From the IMG/VR virus record IMGVR_UViG_3300028591_000010, positions 1 through 64,000 of that record: a DNA stretch of 64,000 nt. One strand, written 5' to 3'. The position numbers and the translations under genes are program-made. The stretch comes from a virus. Taxonomy: Duplodnaviria > Caudoviricetes. The notes under the pieces were generated by a model that saw nothing but the letters and a program-made list of their open reading frames with translations, did not search any database and was not told the DNA's origin. Shown piece after piece: positions 1 to 64,000 of the stretch (position 1 is the first letter of the stretch; every line of letters starts with the position of its first letter).

Positions 1-23
1 AAGAATAAAGAATTTAAACATAT

Positions 24-1547
24 ATGAATAATACTTTACTTAATAATCTCCAGCTGTATCGTGGACGTCGTTTCAGCGACCTGGTAGATGAGAACATGAT
101 TTCTAACGCTCTGCTGACCAAGCCTCATGAGGTATCTGGTCTGCTTTCACTGGTATTTGGTACTAAGGATGATGGTATTTCAACTACTATCGACCTGTTG
201 ACTGGTGGTCTGGGCAAGACTATGATTATTGAGAATCGTGAGTTTGAATGGAGTGTAATGGTTGACGCTGATCACGCTGTCAATATCCGCTGGGCTAAGT
301 GGAATGGTCAGGAGATCACATATTCTAACTATAACTCTATTACTCCTGGTTTGAACAATACTCCTATCTACCTGGCTCTCGAAGAGCGTTGGTTCGGTCC
401 TGGTGCAATTCTGTCGTTCGACGACTACAAGTTCCAGGTTCGTACAACTGGTCTTCCTTATCAGGATGGCAGCGCTTGGGTTTACGAGTGCTATGTTGTA
501 GATGGTTCACAGGCAGCTTATATTCCTGGTGAGTTCCTGATGCCTGGTCGTCAGGTAAGCCGTATCGGTTCTGCTTACGAGGAGTACAGTGATGAGGCTG
601 ATATCATCAACTATCAGACCCCATTCAAGATGCGCAATCATCTGCAGAATCTGCGTCTGACTTATGATATTACCGGTGATGCTTACAGCACAGTTCTGGC
701 TATCGCACTGAAGGATCCCGAGACTGGTAAGAGCTCTTATCTCTGGTCTGACTATCAGTACTGGAAGGCTCTACGTGAGTGGAAGAAGAGAGAGGAGACA
801 GCTCTCCTGTTCTCTAAGAGCAACCGTCTGAGCGATGGTACTTATATCAACAAGGGTACTAACGGTCGTCCTGTTCCTACGATGTCTGGTCTGTTCGAGC
901 AGATCTCTCCGGCTAACATCCGTTACTACACGACTCTTACAGCTGAGTTGTTCGAGGATTATCTGTTCGATCTCTGCTACAACATCCTGGGTACTAACGA
1001 GCGTAAGTTCGTTGCTCTGACCGGTGAGATGGGTATTCGTGAGTTCGACCGTATCCTGAAGGAGAAGGTTGCTAGCTTCAACCTGGTTGATAATATCTTT
1101 GTAACTGGTTCAGGTCAGAACCTGACTCTTGGTGGTCAGTTCACGACTTATAAGATGACTAACGGTATTGAGCTCTCTCTGAAGCGTTGTCCTATGTTCG
1201 ACAACATGGAGCTGTTCCGTCAGTTGCATCCTCTGACTGGTAAGCCACTGATGTCCTACACCTTCCTGTTTGTTAATATTAGCAACTTCGATGGTCAGGC
1301 TAACATCGTAAAGGTTTGTCGTAAGGGTCGTGAATTCGTTCAGTGGTACACTGGCGGTTCTGTAGCACCTAACGGTTATGCTAACAGCATCAACACTCTG
1401 CGTTCTAACAGCCGCGATGGTTACCAGGTTCACTTCCTTGGTGAAGTTGGTATCATGGTTCGTAACCCGCTGTCTTGCGGTATTCTGTACTGCGACGCTG
1501 AGGATACTGAAATTTCCAACAGTGGAATTCCTTCAGTTGGTGCGTAA
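24..1547 (+). CDS. Major capsid protein (crAss-like, HK97 fold)
   Basis: 507 aa with crAss MCP-like motifs (ENREFEW, GSAYEEYS, YWKALREWK, SNSRDGYQVHFLGEVG). No in-frame TAG, strongly biased codon usage, TAA stop, first gene of the structural module. Confidence 0.9.
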   Translation: MNNTLLNNLQLYRGRRFSDLVDENMISNALLTKPHEVSGLLSLVFGTKDDGISTTIDLLTGGLGKTMIIENREFEWSVMVDADHAVNIRWAKWNGQEITYSNYNSITPGLNNTPIYLALEERWFGPGAILSFDDYKFQVRTTGLPYQDGSAWVYECYVVDGSQAAYIPGEFLMPGRQVSRIGSAYEEYSDEADIINYQTPFKMRNHLQNLRLTYDITGDAYSTVLAIALKDPETGKSSYLWSDYQYWKALREWKKREETALLFSKSNRLSDGTYINKGTNGRPVPTMSGLFEQISPANIRYYTTLTAELFEDYLFDLCYNILGTNERKFVALTGEMGIREFDRILKEKVASFNLVDNIFVTGSGQNLTLGGQFTTYKMTNGIELSLKRCPMFDNMELFRQLHPLTGKPLMSYTFLFVNISNFDGQANIVKVCRKGREFVQWYTGGSVAPNGYANSINTLRSNSRDGYQVHFLGEVGIMVRNPLSCGILYCDAEDTEISNSGIPSVGA

Positions 1548-1564
1548 TATCTAATTAACACAAC

Positions 1565-1601
1565 ACGATCTCTTGGGGGCTTCGGCCCCCATACAGGTCG
1601 T
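1565..1601 (+). promoter_or_regulatory. Stable UUCG-tetraloop hairpin after the MCP gene (mRNA stabiliser or attenuator)
   Basis: GGGGGC-TTCG-GCCCCC (1575-1590), extendable by ACGATC/GGTCGT. No U-tract follows. Confidence 0.6.
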
Positions 1602-1623
1602 TATTACAACTCTAATGTAAATT

Positions 1624-2376
1624 ATGGTAGTTGAATTAAAAATTAAGAAGAAGAATCCCTGGATTGGGCTGATCAAGTATAAGAATTGTTTTGATTATAT
1701 TGCTCCTTATTTTACAAGATCCGGGTCGATATATACGGGTCTCACCCCAGAAGATGAGAAATATTTTGAGAAAGCTTTGGGTTATGAGGAAGGTCACCTC
1801 TCAAAGACGTCAGACTTTTGGCAGACATTCTGTGTAAAAGTAGGTACGCGTACGTTGCTGTTAGATGATTCTATTCCTCGTCAGGCTATGATTATTAAGT
1901 TCCTTAGCGGACATAAGCGTGTTGCTACGTCTCTCGATAAACTTGATGCAGGTAAAGACTATCTGTTGATCAATCGTGAGGCTGAAGCAGTAGAACAGAA
2001 CAAGCAGAATAAATTGCGTAGAGATGCTATCAAAGAGTTTGATAAACTGTCACTCGATCAGATGCGTCAGTGCTTACGCCTATTTGGTATGTCTTCAGAC
2101 CGTATGTCTAATGAACTCGTAGAATCTACATTGTTTAACTTGGTTGATAAGCAACCTAAGAAGTTCTTCGATAAGTGGGTTAATAATAAGTCTAAGGATA
2201 CTGAATACTTGCTTGAACAGGCCATTGCTAAAGGTGTAATTCGTAAAGACAAGACGCATTATTTTTATGGCACTGATATGTTTGCTGATTCGCTTGATGA
2301 TGCTATTGGATACTTAGACAGCAAAAAGAACCAAGATCTGAAGCTTGCAATCATAAACGAGACAAACAATAAGTGA
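1624..2376 (+). CDS. Conserved crAss-like protein immediately downstream of MCP (function unknown)
   Basis: 250 aa ORF without TAG, in the conserved position after MCP in the crAss capsid module. Confidence 0.75.
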   Translation: MVVELKIKKKNPWIGLIKYKNCFDYIAPYFTRSGSIYTGLTPEDEKYFEKALGYEEGHLSKTSDFWQTFCVKVGTRTLLLDDSIPRQAMIIKFLSGHKRVATSLDKLDAGKDYLLINREAEAVEQNKQNKLRRDAIKEFDKLSLDQMRQCLRLFGMSSDRMSNELVESTLFNLVDKQPKKFFDKWVNNKSKDTEYLLEQAIAKGVIRKDKTHYFYGTDMFADSLDDAIGYLDSKKNQDLKLAIINETNNK

Positions 2377-2398
2377 TATAATCACAAAAGAATGAGAT

Positions 2399-3994
2399 AT
2401 GACGCATAACAAGATATATACTAAATTCATGATAGAATATGACAAGGCAAATGTTACTTCGTCATATCCATCCCTTACAAAGTATGAAGCTGCGACTCTA
2501 TTAGACAGAGCGTATCTTGCTTTGATTTCAAGGAAACTTACGGGTAATAATACCCGTAGAGTTCCTTTCGAATATGATACAAAAGCAATAGAAGACTTAA
2601 GACCTCTTGTAACAACTAAGAGATTTGAGCAGAAAGGTGGTTCTAATATTGTACTAAATGAATATAAGTTTGGAATGCCAGATGATCTCTTATATTATAT
2701 AGAAGGTGTTGCTAATTATGGTTCAGAAAGAGAAATAGTACTTCCTGTAAATCATCAAATAGCTAGAAAGTTTAAGTATACTAATAGCAATATTCCTTGG
2801 GTTAATCACCCAGTATCTTATATAGAAGGATCTGAAATATATGTACTTATAGATCCGTTCTTACATACAAGTAGTCCAGATTTAGATGGTACTTATATAA
2901 AGAAACCCGCTAGTTTTGTAGTGTCTCTTAAGAAGATAGAAGACGATAACAATGACGGAAATAATTCTGGAGACAATGATGATGGTGGCGATAATAATGG
3001 AGGAGGAAATGATTCCGGAGGAGATAATGGCGGAGGTAATTCTGGAGGAGATGATCAAACTACAGTAACACCTCCAGTTATAACACCAGATGATCTTACT
3101 TTTGCAAACGTTCTTTACGTTAATATAACAGCTGCTAAAGCAGATCATATTGTCTATAGAGTGAATAATGGCACATGGAATGAATACACATGGCCTATAA
3201 CTATAACAGAAACGTCTACTATAGAAGCATACGTTGTATTAAATAATATTGTTAGTAGTACAGTAACTAAAACTTATACTAAACAATAGCAGCAACAGAC
3301 AACAATTAATCCTCCTAGACTTGTTGGTGCTACTTCGTTTATTGACAATACATACGTAGCCATGTATGCAGATGAAGGGTGCCAAATCAAATATACGAAA
3401 GATGGTAGCGATCCATTAACGTCTACTACGGTAAGTATTTATTCTGGATAGATAAAGATAGAAGAAACTACAATTATAAAAGCTGTTGCATGGAAAGACG
3501 ATCATCACAGTAAAGTAGTAACGTAGACTTATGTTAAACAATAGTTAGATTCGTCAACCACACCTACTGTTATTATAGAACAATGTAAATATGTACCGGC
3601 TAGTTCAAATCAGGCAGAAAGTATCTATATTAAACATCAAGTGAATTTAAATAATGTCGGTGTTCGTGTATATTTACACACAATGATTACTGACGACAAT
3701 AAGACGCAGCATGGAGAAATTATTCCTATAATATACGATGTGGAAAGCAAAGTATATGAATAGCTTTTGCCTTATACAAACGGCGATAAAAAAGTAAGAA
3801 TAAGATTGCGTGGTAGAGATAATGACATATTATATAGTGAAGTTTTTGCAGATATAACTGACTTGCCATCTAACGCTCCAGAAGCACCAGATCCAGAAGA
3901 AGGATTCGATTACGATCCATCTGCACCAACATTAGAAGAACTTACATCAAACGTATTAGGCGAAGCTACGCTTGGCGAAATAATATTACAATAA
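2399..3994 (+). CDS. Tail ring protein N-terminal part fused to a Gly/Asp/Asn linker and two Fn3-associated/CHB_HEX_C-like domains (TAG=Gln, 531 aa)
   Basis: Fragments 2399-3289 and 3767-3994 share a frame and are separated only by 5 TAGs. Ring motifs FEYDTKAIEDL and YIKKP, then IKYTKDGSDP...IEETTIIKAVAW. TAA stop. Confidence 0.75.
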
Positions 3995-3997
3995 TAT

Positions 3998-5587
3998 ATG
4001 GATAAATTAAACTTAACATTTAAAGAGGGAGATGTTTTACATGCATCTTCATTGACATCTATTGTACAGACTCTCAATAGTGTAATAGACAATATAAATA
4101 CTGCGATCGAGAGTATTTCGTCTGGAAGCGCAGCAGCTACGTATGATTATACTTTCGAATTTCACGAAGGTTACTCATTAGGATACAATCTTGTTATTCG
4201 TAAATATCAGGATGGTAAAACATACAGAGAAAAAGTAGTTCCTTATTATGAAAGCGTGACCACGATGGAAAATGCTTTAAAGGAGAAAGGTCTTTGTACA
4301 TCGTTTAATCTTACTGTGAAAGTTTAGGAAAGAACTACAGATGGCGAACTTAGTTTTACAACAGAAGGAAATCCTAAATTTATACGATGCGGAACTGATA
4401 TTCAAAATAATGGTTGGAAATTATCAGAAGGAACCAAAGCCGGACAAGGTAAAGGTTCTTTCGAATATATTCAAAGTCATTACTACTACAGTGCAGGAAG
4501 AAAACCTTGGAACGAAGGTCTTGATATAGGTGATGACAATGTCGTATATAATCCTCCTACAGAGTTTGAAGTTTATTCTAATCCAAAAATATACAAGATA
4601 ACACCGTGGTCAAGTAGTATGGACGGAATAGAATTTAATGTGGCAGAAAATGTCGAAGGTCTTAGTCTTATTAAAGCGATAAGAAATACTCTTACGACTA
4701 CTGTAGATAATGTACCTTCTACTTATACTCATGATACATATGTACACGTAGCAAAGGACAACATTCTTATGGAAGGATTTACTGTATTTAGAAGTTCTGA
4801 ATTAGATTGGAGTAAATTTATAGATCTGACTACTGTTGGAAACGAAACCAGCCCGAACATTATATTTGGAAATAACTTCAATTTTGATAGATGGTGTCGT
4901 GCGTATTTAAGTGATCCAGAATACTATCCAGATCCTTCTAATGGTTCTTACAGAGGGTATGTAAAATATTTTAAGAGAAATCCAAAAACTGGACAAGGAG
5001 GTTATGATTTTCTATAGGACGGAAATATAACTTTGAATAAAGGTGATATTTTTGTATACTTTAAAAAGAAAGAAAATATAGTTGGCACAAGAATTAATCC
5101 TACAGCAAAAATCTATATAGATGACATATGGATTAATCCTAGAGATTATGGTTGGGAAGGAGATACTTGGTAGTTTAACGCGTGTATAGATTTTATTATG
5201 TACGCCGCTCACAACGATCTCATAGGTTCTGATGGAAACATATATAGAGATGTCGATACAATTCCTGAAGGAATTACTACTATTCCAGCATGGATAAGTT
5301 ATTATGATTAGGCACATCACCTTCCAGATGGCACTATAATAGGTGTACTGGATGATGTAAACAACATTTATACTCCAAGTAAACCAAATGTTCATTATCA
5401 CGGAAAGTGGGTTAGACAATACAATTCGCTTGTAGGCACTGTACCTACTCATATATATACTATTCCTTGGGAAGAATATGTGTATAAATCAAATGGGGAA
5501 AGATGCAATAGATTTGGTGGAGATAACTACGAAATAATGGCCTTTTGTGCTAATCAAAAGATCGAGTTTAAAAATATCCAATTCTGA
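3998..5587 (+). CDS. Putative fiber/receptor-binding-like protein (TAG=Gln, 529 aa)
   Basis: Fragments 3998-4327 and 4619-5017 are in one frame, continuous through 4 TAGs to TGA 5585-5587. N-terminal FKEGDVLHA...LNSV motif resembles phage fiber N-termini. Function is inferred. Confidence 0.65.
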
Positions 5588-5736
5588 TGAAGTACGAATT
5601 TAGTGATACAGTTCAGTTCGAACTGTCAGATACAATGGCAGAAGAGCTTATAAGTCTTGCTGTAGCTATGGCACTTGAGAACGTAGAGTCTACTAGATTA
5701 CAAACTAAACTATCAACATTACCACTTGAAGGATGA
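5587..5736 (+). CDS. Separately encoded C-terminal helix of the tail ring protein (49 aa)
   Basis: MKYEFSDTVQFELSDTMAEELISLAVAMALENVESTRLQTKLSTLPLEG matches the C-termini of the two downstream ring paralogs. TGATG overlap upstream, ATGA overlap downstream. Confidence 0.7.
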   Translation: MKYEFSDTVQFELSDTMAEELISLAVAMALENVESTRLQTKLSTLPLEG

Positions 5737-6467
5737 GTTTAAAAGAAACAAGACAGCTTGGTATAGAGTTTGAACGTAGGGTACAGACTATGATACCTGA
5801 GACAGAGATTGTTTCAAAGCTGGACACTGACACTATATATTCTTTCTTAAACTAGTATCAAGATAAGTTTATAAGAGATATATATAAAGTGATGGACAAT
5901 ATCCCTACTCCTTCAAAGCCATCTAGCTATGTTGAGTCTATTATACAAGATTTAATTGTACATAAGAAATATACAGTTAATTCTAAGAATAATTAGTTCT
6001 CTATAGAAGTTCCTGATGATTTTGGATTGTATATCGATAGCACCACAAGCGTTAAAGATTCTAGTAGATATAAGACTTACGATAAAGGTTCTTTTAACGG
6101 CAATGGAGAGCTTCCTGTTACGCTTGTGTCTAAAACTAAGGCTCAAGAGTTTATTACTAGGCCATAGGATAATATGCGTATAATGAGGCAACCTATTGCA
6201 TTCTTGGATGGAAACGATAAGACTGGATATATTAAAGTGTATCATGATAGATATACAAAACCAGAATATTTCAATCTGTCTTATTATAGATATCCTAGAT
6301 ATATGAAACTTGCTTCAGGATCAGAATGCGAACTCGATCCGAAAGTATTCGATGATCTTGTAACTGGAGCAGTAGATTTATATGTATAGTATGTTGCTGG
6401 TGCTGAGGCTAGAAAGAGGTAGATGTCAGAACAGTAGAAACGAAACAATAAGGAGGATGAACAATGA
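5733..6467 (+). CDS. Tail ring protein paralog (TAG=Gln, 244 aa)
   Basis: MSLKETRQLGIEFERR...YYRYP...CELDPKVFDDLVTGAVDLY. Contains fragment 6174-6389. ATGA overlaps at both ends. Confidence 0.75.
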
Positions 6468-7207
6468 TAGGTGTAGATATACTAACAGCGTTTGAACTTG
6501 AGATAAACAAGATCAACGATACATTAGAGAAGCCTCTAACAGACGATTCGTTATACTGGCTTAATCAGGCTATAGTAAAGTTTACCAAAGATAGGTTTAA
6601 TGGTAACGCTCCTAAACGTACATCTTATGAATAGAACGAGAAACGTACAAGAGATTTGATAAACCTGTTTAGAAGTATAGATATTGAACCAGAAGAAGTT
6701 TTACAGCAAGCTGGTACTAAAGGAGGTCATCCTTACTATGTACACGTTAAAGGTCCTGAATAGCACGAAAGTTATGATGCATACGTATATAATTATCCAA
6801 CAGATATGATGTTCGTTCTCAGTGAAGATGTAGTTATATCTGACTTTGATGATAATTATAAGATGGATACGTGCGTGTTTGAATGTACGGCCGATAGTTT
6901 CATGTATAGAGTAAACAATAAGCTTACAGACTTTCACTATCGCTTTCATAGAGCAAGACCTCTCCGTATAAGAACCAAAGAGGGATTTAAGCTTCTTACT
7001 GATAAGAAATATAAGATTAATAGATATACTCTGGGCTACCTTAAGGTCCCAGAAGAAATAACAAGTGAAGATCCTTTTAAAGAATATAAGGACTTCGAAG
7101 ATTACACTTGGTTGGAAATAATTAAGATAGCCGCATAGATGTATGTAGAGAATCAATCAGATCCTCGCTACAAGACTATCACACAAGAAGTTCTAACACA
7201 AGAATAA
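6464..7207 (+). CDS. Tail ring protein paralog (TAG=Gln, 247 aa)
   Basis: WLNQA...SYE(TAG)NEKRTRDL...YLKVP...EIIKIAA(TAG)MYVEN. Contains fragment 6806-7138. TAA stop. Confidence 0.8.
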
Positions 7208-7283
7208 TTTTTAACGTGGAAACCCCAGCTAGTTAGGTCTAGCCTTAGAAATAGAGGGGGAGTAGAAAAAAATTAAATAAATT

Positions 7284-8492
7284 ATGGTAAATTATGTAAA
7301 TACTGTGCTCGTTAGCAATCTGTCTTCGGGCGCCGTTTTGAGTGCAGCTCCTGCAGCAGCTGCTAGTTTGAATGCTGCTTCTGATGATGCTGGTAAGTTC
7401 ATTCTGATGAACTGTGATCCTAATGTAGATTCTAACAAGATCTACGAGGTTACCGCTGCTAATGCTGCTAACATCAACACAATTAAGGTTGGTATCGTTA
7501 CAAAGAAGAACTCTGTTCTCCGTAATGCAGACGGTACTGTTACTTATACTCCAATCGTAAAGTGGTCAAACGAAATCAAAGCTGCTGATATTAAGAGTTA
7601 CAACGCTCTGACATACGCTGCTGACACTGAGGATTGTGTATACATCGACCTCAACAGTCTGACGGATATTGTCGGTAACGGCAATAGCGCTAAGGCCGGC
7701 ATTCGTGTTATCGTTCGTCTGACTTACAAGGATATGCCCCACCGTTATCGTAAGTGGACTGAGAGCTATGAGTATGTAACTGCACAGGGTGATACTAAGG
7801 CTAAGATTGCTGAAGGTATTGCTAAGATAATCAATAAGGAGTGGAAGCGCGCTCGCGTTCAGGCTACTCAGGGTACTGTTACTCTGTCTTCTGGCGCATT
7901 TGCAAGCTTCTCTTCTAGCAATTCCGGTACAGGTGTTAAGATTGAGGCCCTGCCTTACGACGATGACGACAGCGTAGATTCACTGAACTGGGCTAACAAG
8001 GTTCGCTTCAATGCAAACATCTACTGGACCGATCCTTCTGCTGAAGGTTGGGAGTCTCTGAATAAGCACTTCCCGAAGGGCGCTGCTGTTGTTAAGGTTC
8101 CTGGTCAGACATATCCTGCTTCTGCTAAGCTCGTCCGTGATCGTGAGAGCTGGGCTATGGGTTATCTGGGAATCCTGAACCGTGGTGAAGGTACGTGGCC
8201 TATCATCAAGCCTGCTATGGAGACCGATCTGACTGCGCACTACGATGCTCTTACTCTCGAGTTTGAGAATATGTATCGTGCAGCTGATGATATCCAGCGC
8301 AAGACGAAGCAGACCCTTGAAGTCTATGGTAAGACTGGTCAGCTGAGTGATATCAAGGCTATCCTTGACGCATTTGTAGAGGGTGTTGTTTCAAGCTCTG
8401 ATGCTGCACAGAATGCTGCTCTTGATCCTACTGTAGAAGGATCTCTTGCTGCTCGTGTTGCTGCTCTCGAGACTACTGTTAGCAACCTTTAA
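7284..8492 (+). CDS. Auxiliary capsid protein (crAss001 gp36-like)
   Basis: 402 aa, no TAG, MCP-like codon bias, motifs VRDRE..AMGYLG and YDALTLEFEN.Y, position after the ring genes. Confidence 0.7.
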   Translation: MVNYVNTVLVSNLSSGAVLSAAPAAAASLNAASDDAGKFILMNCDPNVDSNKIYEVTAANAANINTIKVGIVTKKNSVLRNADGTVTYTPIVKWSNEIKAADIKSYNALTYAADTEDCVYIDLNSLTDIVGNGNSAKAGIRVIVRLTYKDMPHRYRKWTESYEYVTAQGDTKAKIAEGIAKIINKEWKRARVQATQGTVTLSSGAFASFSSSNSGTGVKIEALPYDDDDSVDSLNWANKVRFNANIYWTDPSAEGWESLNKHFPKGAAVVKVPGQTYPASAKLVRDRESWAMGYLGILNRGEGTWPIIKPAMETDLTAHYDALTLEFENMYRAADDIQRKTKQTLEVYGKTGQLSDIKAILDAFVEGVVSSSDAAQNAALDPTVEGSLAARVAALETTVSNL

Positions 8493-8509
8493 TTAAACTA
8501 ACGATATAA

Positions 8510-8548
8510 GACTAGGGGTGGGGCAACTGCCCTATTCCTAGTTTTTTA
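8510..8548 (+). terminator. Rho-independent terminator
   Basis: GACTAGGGGTGGG...CCTATTCCTAGTT stem followed by a T run. Confidence 0.8.
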
Positions 8549-8562
8549 TTAAACAACAGCTT

Positions 8563-9462
8563 ATGGAAACAAAGAAGATTAGAATTGGAAACGACATAAG
8601 GCTTGCTGTGGACCTTCGTTAGTATATCAAAGATAAAAATCCGTATCTCTACGAAAGACGTGTGTATTTTCCAGGAGACGATGAGTTTGAACGCTTAGAT
8701 GACAATGAGTTTGTAAATAAGAAGACAGAACTCTATTATCCACCTCTTTATGATGAGGATGACGATAATCAGAATGGATCTGGAATTGCTTTTGATCCTA
8801 GTAATATACATCTTTGTATAAGAGAGGTAAAGGCAATATTAATAAACACGTCGCTTTAGAAGAAGCTAATCGATAAGCATAGAAAAGAAAGTAGATTTAT
8901 CGGTAGATTTCCTGTAGAACCTGGAATTCCTCCATTCTATCCTACACATCACGATCTGTGTTGTAGCGGATTTCCTGGATGGAGAGCTTATCCTGGCTTC
9001 GGAGTATATCCTCACTGGGGAGCTTTGTATCATCGCATGCCTAAAGTAAACCCTGTAGAATACTAGGCAGAAGCAATGGCTACTAACAAACAAAACGTTG
9101 TAGAAGTTATGTTTCCAGCTGAAGCTCAGCTTTATACAGGAAAATATAAGCTCGTTATTGTTGCAAAAGTATTTGCTCCAGGTTTTAACAATAAAAACCT
9201 CAAAACAATAACGCTCGATGTTCCAGATGTATTTGAACTCGTTGGTTCTACAGAAGAAGGTATAGATACTGGATTTAAGATTAACGTTTCAGAAGTAATA
9301 GATATTCTTCCAGATGAGAATTACTTCTATACTCCACCTGAGTTAGATGTATTCGTAAATGAAGGAGAGATTGGAGACAACCACTTATTGCTCAATAGAA
9401 CAGACAGTAATGTCGTAGATGTAGACTTGAGTAGCGTAGTTGGTTGGCATGATGAAAATTGA
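8563..9462 (+). CDS. Hypothetical virion-module protein (TAG=Gln, 299 aa)
   Basis: Starts METKKIRIGNDIRL and joins fragments 8662-8859 and 9076-9462 in frame through TAGs. TGA stop. Confidence 0.7.
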
Positions 9463-62806: not shown

Positions 62807-63304
62807 TTAATACTTACCTTCTATACAACATATCAAGAATTCTGCTAAGTTATCAACATACTGATACTTTGCTTCTTTCTCCTCCTGCGTACAATTGGGA
62901 GAAGGTAATAGCCAAGAAAGATAATCTCGAATGATTTCAATCTGTATATCAAAATCATCTTTACCTTTCTGTTTAGAGATACTGTATGCATGTTCAATGC
63001 ACTGAAATTCTTTCATGAACCATTTAACCCATTTAGAGATACGTTCCCAATATTCTTTTTCTTCATTGGTTAAATCGTCCCAATTAATAGTTTTATCAAA
63101 CTCAAATTGATATTTACCATGTTCAGCAATGCCCAATGCTATACGAGTAGCATTATTACGCTGATCTTTATCACGATATATACCAATAAAATTTGAATAA
63201 ACATGATCTATCCACTTTTCTTTAGCTTTACGCCATTTAAGTGCATAGTTTACCATCTTGGGACAACGGTCCCGTAACATTTCTTTGTATCCTAATTTCT
63301 TCAT
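62807..63304 (-). CDS. Hypothetical protein
   Basis: 165 aa ORF starting just after the tRNA-Arg 3' end. Confidence 0.7.
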   Translation of the reverse strand: MKKLGYKEMLRDRCPKMVNYALKWRKAKEKWIDHVYSNFIGIYRDKDQRNNATRIALGIAEHGKYQFEFDKTINWDDLTNEEKEYWERISKWVKWFMKEFQCIEHAYSISKQKGKDDFDIQIEIIRDYLSWLLPSPNCTQEEKEAKYQYVDNLAEFLICCIEGKY

Positions 63305-63308
63305 ATTG

Positions 63309-63382
63309 TGATTCCTAATGGATTCGAACCATTGACCGACAGATTAGAAATCTGTTGCTCTATCCAGCTGAGCTAAGGAACC
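63309..63382 (-). tRNA. tRNA-Arg(TCT)
   Basis: Full cloverleaf GGTTCCT...AGCTCAGCTGGATAGAGC, ACAGA-TT(TCT)AA-TCTGT, AATGG-TTCGAAT-CCATT, AGGAATC-A. CCA not encoded. Confidence 0.9.
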
Positions 63383-63454
63383 GTTACGTCAGCGGCTACT
63401 ATTATTCACCGCTGACTACTATTACAAATCGTTCATTAGACATTGCCTCACGGC

Positions 63455-63503
63455 AGGAGTGAGGTAGGGATTCGAACCCCATACTCCAACATAGTCCTCA
63501 CTC
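63455..63503 (-). ncRNA. Mini tRNA-like element (acceptor stem + T-arm, no anticodon arm)
   Basis: GAGTGAGG/CCTCACTC stem, 14-nt linker containing TGTTGG, TGGGG-TTCGAAT-CCCTA. Confidence 0.6.
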
Positions 63504-63509
63504 TGTCTG

Positions 63510-63722
63510 GGCACTTAGGTAGCCCGTAACACCGACTTTACGCTGCCTCCTTGAGGCCCGTATAGTCTGCAATGTTAATATTGCCAGTTAATTTTATATC
63601 AGAGCGCTTCACGACTTACCGTCTACCGCTGTCAAATCCAAATAGGCCCAGATACTCATGTTAGACTGGTGGACCTAGAGGGATTCGAACCCTCGTCCAA
63701 ACGGCTTATTCTCAGTCACGCT
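63510..63722 (-). ncRNA. ssrA: Circularly permuted (two-piece) tmRNA
   Basis: 3' acceptor piece (GGACGAGGGTTCGAATCCCTCTAGGTCCACCA, ends 63667) precedes the 5' piece (GGGCCTATTTGGATTTGACAGCGG, starts 63649). 7-bp stem with G3.U70. TAACT then tag frame 63585-63538, GNINIADYTGLKEAA*. Outer ends approximate. Confidence 0.85.
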
Positions 63723-64000
63723 AAGATTCTTTTGATGTGATGTTGTCAAATCATGCTACATCTCTTGTGAACTCTATGATGATCAGTCACAGAATTCGAT
63801 TTAAGGCCATTTTCAGCCGTTCTAAGGCGTTTTCTAACCTCTAATGGGTAGCTAATCCATAAGCGGTTATTAAACGCTTCAAAACGGCTTTTTGGGACCC
63901 CATAAAAAGCACATTGCCCTACTACTGACTCTAAGGTTCTGAATAGAATATGCTTGCATTCTTGATATACAATGCAGTGTCAATATGTTGATACAATCTC

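Follow-up and report, generated by a model that had tools for sequence, protein, structure and literature searches.

The stretch of DNA considered here, referred to as the window, covers the first 64 kb (64,000 nucleotides) of an IMG/VR phage record (IMGVR_UViG_3300028591_000010) that is complete, has terminal repeats, and runs to 106,373 bp. It encodes a major capsid protein (MCP) of the Crassvirales at 24-1547 (PF23898, E 3e-208), and its nearest named relatives are the Suoliviridae/Oafivirinae phages cr272_1, cr273_1, cr7_1, cr124_1, cr131_1, and cr130_1. The subject of this report is a gene for a tail ring protein, downstream of the MCP gene, that is divided into two translatable parts by an insert of about 2.7 kb. 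The genes of this region follow the order: MCP, a gene of 250 amino acids (aa), gene A (the body of the ring protein and an extension of it), gene B, a 49-aa open reading frame (ORF) referred to as the mini-ORF, ring paralogs D and E, and a 402-aa gene.

Under translation table 11, the segment from 2399 to 7207 appears as many short ORFs, and its long frames are broken by TAG only. A tRNA with the anticodon CTA is encoded on the plus strand at genome positions 76681-76755, beyond the window; it is labeled Pyl by ARAGORN and is likely the amber suppressor behind the reading of TAG as Gln. Since this tRNA is present and TAG aligns most often with CAA or CAG in strain comparisons (21 of 47 pairings), TAG is evidently read as Gln in this genome. 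The same recoding has been reported for many crAss-like phages (PMC7886860). All gene coordinates in Table 1 were obtained with TAG translated as Gln; the 296-aa product that table 11 gives for gene A is not on record as an exact sequence.

Table 1. Genes and features of the divided ring locus, numbered from the first base of the window.
Feature	Position	Strand	Length and stop	Remarks
Gene A	2399-3994	+	531 aa, TAA
Ring-domain body of gene A (aa 1-176)	2399-2926	+		N-terminal helices and beta-sandwich, without the last helix; colinear with unsplit orthologs
G/D/N-rich low-complexity linker	2927-3058	+		Start of the insert; continues the gene A frame (from translation)
Two tandem Ig-like domains (CHB_HEX_C_1 / Fn3_assoc)	3119-3532	+		Second significant; first below the Pfam threshold
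Beta-rich region and acidic/Pro-rich tail of gene A	3533-3994	+		Ends ...LGEATLGEIILQ; TAA stop at 3992-3994
Gene B	3998-5587	+	529 aa, TGA
TGATG stop/start overlap, gene B to mini-ORF	5585-5589	+		Read from the sequence
Mini-ORF	5587-5736	+	49 aa	First base is the last base of the gene B stop; detached ring C-terminal helix
Ring paralog D	5733-6467	+	244 aa	Unsplit; hhalign against family A; synteny conserved
Ring paralog E	6464-7207	+	247 aa	Unsplit; hhalign against family A; PF25710 matches in related contigs

Gene A and the mini-ORF together correspond to one complete ring protein. In a multiple alignment, residues 1-176 of gene A are colinear with unsplit orthologs through the sequence YIKKPASFV, and divergence sets in at about nt 2927, close to the ~2920 given in the initial annotation of this region. 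Where the gene A linker begins, the orthologs hold just 2-20 residues. The closest unsplit genome (L029) has an MCP that is 98.6% identical, and an adjoining 250-aa gene that is 95.6% identical, to those of the window, and it encodes a ring ortholog of 223 aa. Gene A residues 1-176 match residues 1-177 of this protein and mini-ORF residues 5-49 match residues 179-223, so that a single residue of the 223 is left uncovered. Because these two segments partition the unsplit ortholog, the insert can be placed at ~2927-5598, a length of 2.67 kb. The initial annotation had described a ring gene split by a cassette of ~2.7 kb, followed by a 49-aa ORF in a different frame that is coupled by TGATG. With TAG read as Gln, both descriptions are confirmed: close relatives possess the unsplit gene, the ends of the insertion are clean, and the mini-ORF lies in frame -1 relative to gene B. 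At its other end, the mini-ORF overlaps the start of gene D through the ATGA at 5733-5736.

Genes A and B share a frame and are separated only by TAA-TAT (window 3992-4000). This same-frame junction is kept in all strains of the window lineage and is absent from the other lineages with two genes; it may be a remnant of one former gene.

The homology of the mini-ORF to ring C-termini, first proposed from the downstream paralogs, is borne out by tblastn, multiple alignment, and profile comparison. When the first 179 residues of gene A and the mini-ORF were searched by tblastn against GenBank phages, the same relatives were returned, and one gene of 234-244 aa holds both matches side by side in cr7_1, cr124_1, Dulem virus 42, cr130_1, and cr131_1. 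Unsplit orthologs were also found in cr272_1 and L029. In the alignment, the mini-ORF falls on the C-terminal helix of these proteins (...FELSDxMAEELIxLA...VES.RL...). A homology search returned 77 clusters (90% identity) of short homologs, including a few longer table-11 fragments of unsplit genes; the homologs are 66-94% identical, mostly 45-50 aa in length, and start with M-x-(Y)-x-F-[SG]-x-T-x-x-FEL. Of their positions, 14 do not vary, and these carry the same residues as the helix in unsplit orthologs. Between lineages, dN/dS of the mini-ORF is 0.10-0.35 at dS 0.7-2.2. Since the ratio stays this low though synonymous sites are near saturation, the segment is under purifying selection at the protein level, in the mini-ORF frame.

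It could be argued that the mini-ORF is not a functional protein, that the truncated body works alone, and that the 150-nt segment is kept as DNA or RNA, e.g., as a recombination anchor or for translation coupling into gene D. The segment is indeed an island of 98-100% DNA identity beside sequence of 60-70% identity, it does act as a recombination boundary, and it overlaps the start of gene D. This explanation is nonetheless improbable in light of the dN/dS values, the match between its invariant residues and those of the ortholog helix, and the integral position of that helix in the fold of both the ortholog model and the phicrAss001 structure 7QOJ described below.

An artifact of assembly was the other possibility raised at the outset, and it was not seen. 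Independent samples yielded 18 contigs that encode the identical 49-aa product, with at least three gene B alleles among them, and two other assemblies (L006 and L007) are 100% identical to the window over both junctions. The same architecture is found in diverged strains and lineages, and the record is complete with terminal repeats. While the genome is metagenome-assembled, the likelihood that a chimera or a sequencing error produced the apparent stop and frame change is thus negligible.

The relationship of gene A to the ring genes downstream, previously proposed from a shared YxxxP motif and C-terminal helix, emerges from profile-profile comparisons. In hhalign, family A matches D with a probability of 93% (E 4e-8) and E with a probability of 88% (E 4e-7), and in both cases the YxxxP motif and the C-terminal helices align. 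Profiles are needed to recognize this paralogy since pairwise BLASTP comparisons among A, D, and E are not significant. The Pfam family PF25710 (CrAss_Ring_3_4) is matched by 32 of 98 orthologs of the gene A body, with a best E of 1.8e-10. Paralog E reaches 1.2e-5 with this family, which is below the cut-off, and its orthologs on related contigs give strong matches; gene A itself has no PF25710 match at E <= 0.01. Sequence searches of the PDB with the gene A body, D, E, or the 98-sequence profile yielded no match, and 7QOJ was found by fold comparison only. PHROGs gave no match for A, B, the mini-ORF, D, or E. As a separate observation, the third ring paralog of L029 (6403-7320) is 305 aa in length compared to 247 aa in the window, with 78% identity over 247 aa, and may represent an in-frame insertion in another ring paralog.

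The fold was modeled with AlphaFold, using the 98-sequence alignment, for the closest unsplit ortholog (P0087), which is 68% identical to the gene A body. In the model (pLDDT 86), three helices (residues 3-18, 28-48, 61-70) lead into a beta-sandwich that spans 71-169, after which come a short helix (174-177) and a long one at the C-terminus (189-213). Foldseek ranked the tail-barrel chains of phicrAss001 (7QOJ_D/E/F) at the top, with TM scores of 0.71-0.75 and E 3e-12. Superposition on 7QOJ_E by VIA-align gave Z 16.3 and an rmsd of 2.9 Å for 206 residues, covering model range 1-216 and including the C-terminal helix at 189-213; the next matches were podovirus adaptors with Z 9-11 (best 10.9). 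The ring proteins of phicrAss001 consist of three conserved helices and a beta-sandwich, and the genes for R3 and R4/R5 lie between those for the MCP and an auxiliary capsid protein (Bayfield et al. 2023, PMC10172136). In the window, the MCP gene and the 402-aa gene likewise flank a tandem array of ring paralogs, an order shared by relatives and phicrAss001. Judged by the ortholog model, the gene A body is a crAss R3/R4/R5-type tail ring protein that lacks its last helix. From the P0087 and 7QOJ folds, the break corresponds to the loop at ortholog residues ~178-188, just before a conserved helix.

The sequence that occupies this loop comprises the extension of gene A and all of gene B. Two Fn3-associated-like domains had been described in the extension. 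The one at aa 317-378 stands (Fn3_assoc/CHB_HEX_C_1, Pfam E 1e-14), while the upstream copy, at ~aa 241-290, falls short of the Pfam threshold (E 5e-4; 20.3 bits versus a cut-off of 22). In other lineages, split forms with two genes have a gene A that ends in ...LDxSxLxxxxKIR/Q, weakly resembling the tail of gene A in the window. Gene B opens with a conserved motif, F..GDVL.A..L.SIV, and then a heptad-like stretch; its body is hypervariable, and at least three alleles are known, of 509-515, 529, and 576 aa. Only five representatives of gene B occur in 1.84 billion clusters, and a search for related loci in IMG/VR with gene B as the query returned nothing. Its N-terminal motif has no second occurrence in the genome, and for this reason is not a general fiber-docking motif of the phage. 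Gene B is thus an orphan; based on its position, N-terminal motif, and variability, it is probably a fiber-like protein, and the same features suggest that the cargo could bind a host receptor. No endonuclease domain was found in the gene A extension, in gene B, or in the cargo of five other lineages.

Division of the ring gene is not confined to the window. Six architectures were observed, all within the order MCP, 250-aa gene, A, with or without B, mini-ORF, D, E. In the lineage of the window and L005, a gene A of 531 aa is followed by a gene B of 509-576 aa and a mini-ORF of 49 aa, which is joined through TGATG or TAATG (1-nt overlap) in frame -1. A gene B is also present in L022 (227 + 279 + 48 aa; ATGA, 4-nt overlap; frame -1) and in L017 (282 + 377 + 48 aa; 8-nt overlap; frame +1). 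The mini-ORF directly follows gene A in L025 (430 + 50 aa; ATGA, 4-nt overlap; frame -1), L024 (462 + 48 aa; TAA plus 1 nt; frame +1), and L019-L021 (720-723 + 49 aa; TGA plus 2 nt; frame -1). Regardless of architecture, every mini-ORF has its own ATG adjoining the upstream stop. Other relatives carry in-frame insertions. Those of cr272_1, P0094, and P0185 are 20-60 aa in length and lie in the same linker. In cr273_1 (L002 1498-3870), the 790-aa product gp21 has an in-frame insertion of ~500 aa with InlB B-repeats (Flg_new_2), which occupies a different loop, before YIKxP, and is lacking in cr272_1 (L014 2257-3141), a member of the same genus.

The cargo changes on a nearly constant background. 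In strains whose D and E genes are 96-98% identical to those of the window, gene B is ~60% identical, and DNA identity steps from 60-70% to 98-100% exactly at the start of the mini-ORF, nt 5587. Compared to L005, further islands of ~98-100% DNA identity occupy the gene A 5′ end and the A-end/B-start junction (3943-4240, including the last ~50 nt of gene A); the first 60 aa of gene B are 100% identical, and the remainder falls to 34-56%. Three anchors of highly conserved DNA delimit the arrangement: the gene A 5′ end, the A-end/B-start junction, and the mini-ORF. Between lineages, only the ring body and, where a gene B is present, its first ~33 residues are alike; the inserted sequence is otherwise dissimilar. 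The term “swappable”, which the initial annotation had applied to the module, is therefore apt: at least three gene B alleles exist on near-identical backbones, and unrelated cargo occupies the same site in other lineages.

What the cargo does is a separate question from how it is housed. With the same architecture, it could decorate the virion so as to promote adherence to mucus or glycans, as in the BAM model, or act as a structural brace, and not bind a host receptor. The Ig-like CHB_HEX_C/Fn3_assoc domains of the gene A extension and the InlB B-repeats of cr273_1 are in keeping with adherence, and Ig-like proteins of gut phages, including crAss-like phages, conferred epithelial and mucus adherence when displayed on phage K1F (bioRxiv 10.64898/2026.02.02.702849). 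On the other hand, allelic turnover and mosaicism on near-identical backbones are usual for host-range determinants, though not exclusively so. A role in adherence or bracing is a realistic alternative, if the less likely one.

Split and unsplit states can be compared directly in a pair of sister genomes in which the flanking DNA is 93-94% identical: L024 has the split form, of 462 + 48 aa, and L027 an unsplit gene of 243 aa. In L024, 821 nt take the place of 16 nt, and TAATATTAAT becomes TAACATGAAC. The unsplit sequence ...TC T AAT ATT AAT TAC... is equivalent to ...TAA C ATG AAC TAC... in the split L024, by which both the stop of gene A and the start of the mini-ORF are supplied. Split and unsplit forms intermingle in a quick tree of the ring body (180 residues, from a gene that recombines), in which well-supported branches require at least four changes of state.

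A gene that is broken in this manner might still yield a one-piece protein, if a self-splicing intron or ribosomal bypassing were to remove the insert. Group I introns are known in this crAss-like group, and the MCP genes of relatives hold HNH/NUMOD4 ORFs (PMC7886860). The initial annotation had seen no intron hallmarks in the present locus, and an Rfam scan of 1-9000 (E <= 1) likewise found no intron or ribozyme family, with two noise hits only. Moreover, the insert is an open frame that continues the upstream body, encodes Ig-like structural domains, and has the in-frame TAG codons typical of translated late genes. It includes neither an endonuclease nor a maturase. There is no common RNA core, since the inserts of different lineages share no sequence, and each mini-ORF retains its own ATG adjoining a stop codon. 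Removal of the insert by splicing or bypassing is consequently very improbable.

Programmed recoding would offer a different route to a single chain, in which read-through of the TAA and a -1 frameshift at the end of gene B fuse A, B, and the helix into a protein of ~1,110 aa with an insertion in the loop. The shared frame of A and B, separated by TAA-TAT alone, would permit the first step, and an A-rich run (TTTAAAAAT) just before the gene B stop in the window is of interest for the second. The 790-aa protein of cr273_1 further illustrates that the same gene can accommodate ~500 aa in frame, but its insertion is in a different loop. The sequence 5′ of the mini-ORF is unrelated among the three B alleles, and no common slippery site exists. 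In addition, the frame of the mini-ORF is -1 or +1 depending on the lineage, with overlaps of 1, 4, or 8 nt and gaps of 1-2 nt; the frames of A and B differ in the other two-gene forms; and the start ATG is kept in all stand-alone forms. Fusion by recoding is therefore quite unlikely, though marginally less so than removal of the insert. A split intein was also considered and is disfavored on inspection: the body runs on into ...SLKKIEDDNN, no Cys/Ser block is present, and only four residues of the mini-ORF precede the homologous region.

The reading we favor, and regard as probable, is that a ring gene of the phicrAss001 R3/R4/R5 type has undergone fission between its beta-sandwich and last helix, giving rise to a subunit of two polypeptides with a swappable surface module on the tail barrel. 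The two-polypeptide interpretation of the initial annotation is supported in this respect: the layout of the genes, its conservation, and the mosaic cargo are observed, and translation of the mini-ORF, physical assembly of the parts, and receptor binding by the module are inferred. According to the mechanism proposed, the mini-ORF would be translated by coupled re-initiation, and the helix it encodes would complete the ring subunit by packing in trans on the N-terminal helices of gene A. By analogy with 7QOJ, the ring would be a dodecamer. The break in the chain would free the C-terminal end of the body, allowing an elongated appendage to project from the barrel; an insertion within a loop, in contrast, would have to lead the chain back to where it left. 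Where two genes are present, the product of gene B, a probable fiber, would dock on the conserved tail of gene A. Homologous recombination at the conserved anchors would then swap the cargo and diversify host or surface binding.

Several points weigh against this reading. Production of the 49-aa peptide and its binding to gene A are inferred from the gene structures. The 100% identity of the mini-ORF on 18 contigs is partly a matter of ascertainment, since the contigs were looked up by exact sequence. A single-sequence AlphaFold model of gene A has a pLDDT of 31, and the structural case consequently rests on the ortholog. Gene B has no match in Pfam or PHROGs, none among GenBank phages by tblastn, and none to a fiber or receptor-binding family. 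Lastly, the count of changes between states comes from the quick tree mentioned above, with its short alignment of a recombining gene.

Among known systems, the closest in fold and position is the phicrAss001 tail barrel, in which R3 (gp35) and R4/R5 (gp34) (7QOJ, PF25710) share with the locus in the window the same genomic position, a tandem arrangement of paralogs, and the fold of the unsplit ortholog. The phicrAss001 ring proteins are single chains, and its fibers dock on hub proteins at rings R1 and R2. In contrast, one R3-R5-type paralog of the window is in two ORFs, with an additional ~880 aa, variable in sequence, where the chain is broken. Podovirus head-to-tail adaptors that have a fiber-docking beta-domain (SU10, cyanophage A4, Pa223, GP4, and VP1) are the next-best structural matches (Z 9-11); unlike the split ring, they are single chains with non-covalently docked fibers. 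T7-type adaptors dock fibers via this beta-domain region. The in-frame insertions of cr273_1 gp21, cr272_1, P0094, and P0185 show the same ring protein serving as a platform for extra surface domains, but these forms remain one polypeptide, and the large insertion of cr273_1 is in another loop.

We know of no case in which the last helix exists as a separate mini-protein, and no paper describing this split was found in the literature searched. The closest precedent in principle is the NrdA protein of Aeromonas phage Aeh1, the gene for which is split by the homing-endonuclease gene mobE (Crona et al., PMC3045599). There, too, two parts are retained and translated separately, and the pieces have been shown to reassemble into a working protein (PMC3045599). 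The two systems differ in that the insert here is structural, fiber-like cargo that is partly fused to the upstream half, and not an endonuclease. In addition, the downstream piece here is one helix only, and the split state is polymorphic and its cargo exchangeable. For a tail component made of two polypeptides, a precedent is reported in the two-protein “split nozzle” of phage A1002 (PMC13730344). Unexplained fragmentation of genes in crAss-like phages has been mentioned by Yutin et al. (PMC7886860).

Other features of the genome were observed in the course of this analysis. The MCP gene is intact in the window; in several relatives it is interrupted by an HNH/NUMOD4 endonuclease ORF (L003 541-2574; L019 1598-3973; L020/L021 1477-3983), an interruption of the kind expected for group I introns. 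GC content is 45-52% in the MCP gene and in the 402-aa gene (7284-8492), which occupies the auxiliary-capsid position, compared to 31-36% in the genes between them. The MCP and 402-aa genes are also free of in-frame TAG, of which neighboring late genes have 3-10 each, and this suggests that the recoded codon is avoided in abundant capsid proteins. The conserved 250-aa gene between the MCP and ring genes (1624-2376) is named “RecA protein” in RefSeq crAss records. That name looks doubtful, as the gene has no Pfam match and its only PHROG match is of unknown function. Genes for tRNA-Glu(TTC) and tRNA-Met(CAT) are located at genome positions 66107-66317. Finally, ARAGORN reports a “tmRNA*” with the tag VAADVTVP on the minus strand at window positions 63282-63760; it encloses tRNA-Arg(TCT) at 63308-63382 and is probably a false call of a permuted tmRNA.

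No viruses of the human gut are more abundant than the crAss-like phages, most of which are uncultured; the parts by which they recognize their hosts are poorly known. A broader proposal, which we hold tentatively and at somewhat less than even confidence, is that, in one ring paralog, the loop leading to the last helix serves as a dedicated plug-in slot throughout this clade of Oafivirinae-like gut crAss-like phages. Breakage of the chain, together with a trans-complementing helix of 48-50 residues, would let any elongated or oligomeric module hang on the distal tail barrel, while the ultra-conserved helix gene and the 5′ end of the body would serve as recombination anchors that move cassettes between co-infecting phages and convert “bare” tails to “armed” ones and back. 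If true, the slot would be an attachment site with no counterpart seen in phicrAss001, and it would explain the “orphan” 48-aa genes and truncated ring genes that appear in annotations. A polymorphic slot in the ring would also mark the site of host-range or adherence determinants for the whole subfamily. For annotation in general, the locus is a warning against taking every stop codon and shift of frame within a conserved structural gene as a sign of a pseudogene, an intron, or an assembly error. If the proposed mechanism is correct, these phages would show split-protein complementation occurring naturally in a virion, in which a structural protein is completed by a mini-protein of one helix, and which could guide the engineering of display sites on such phages.

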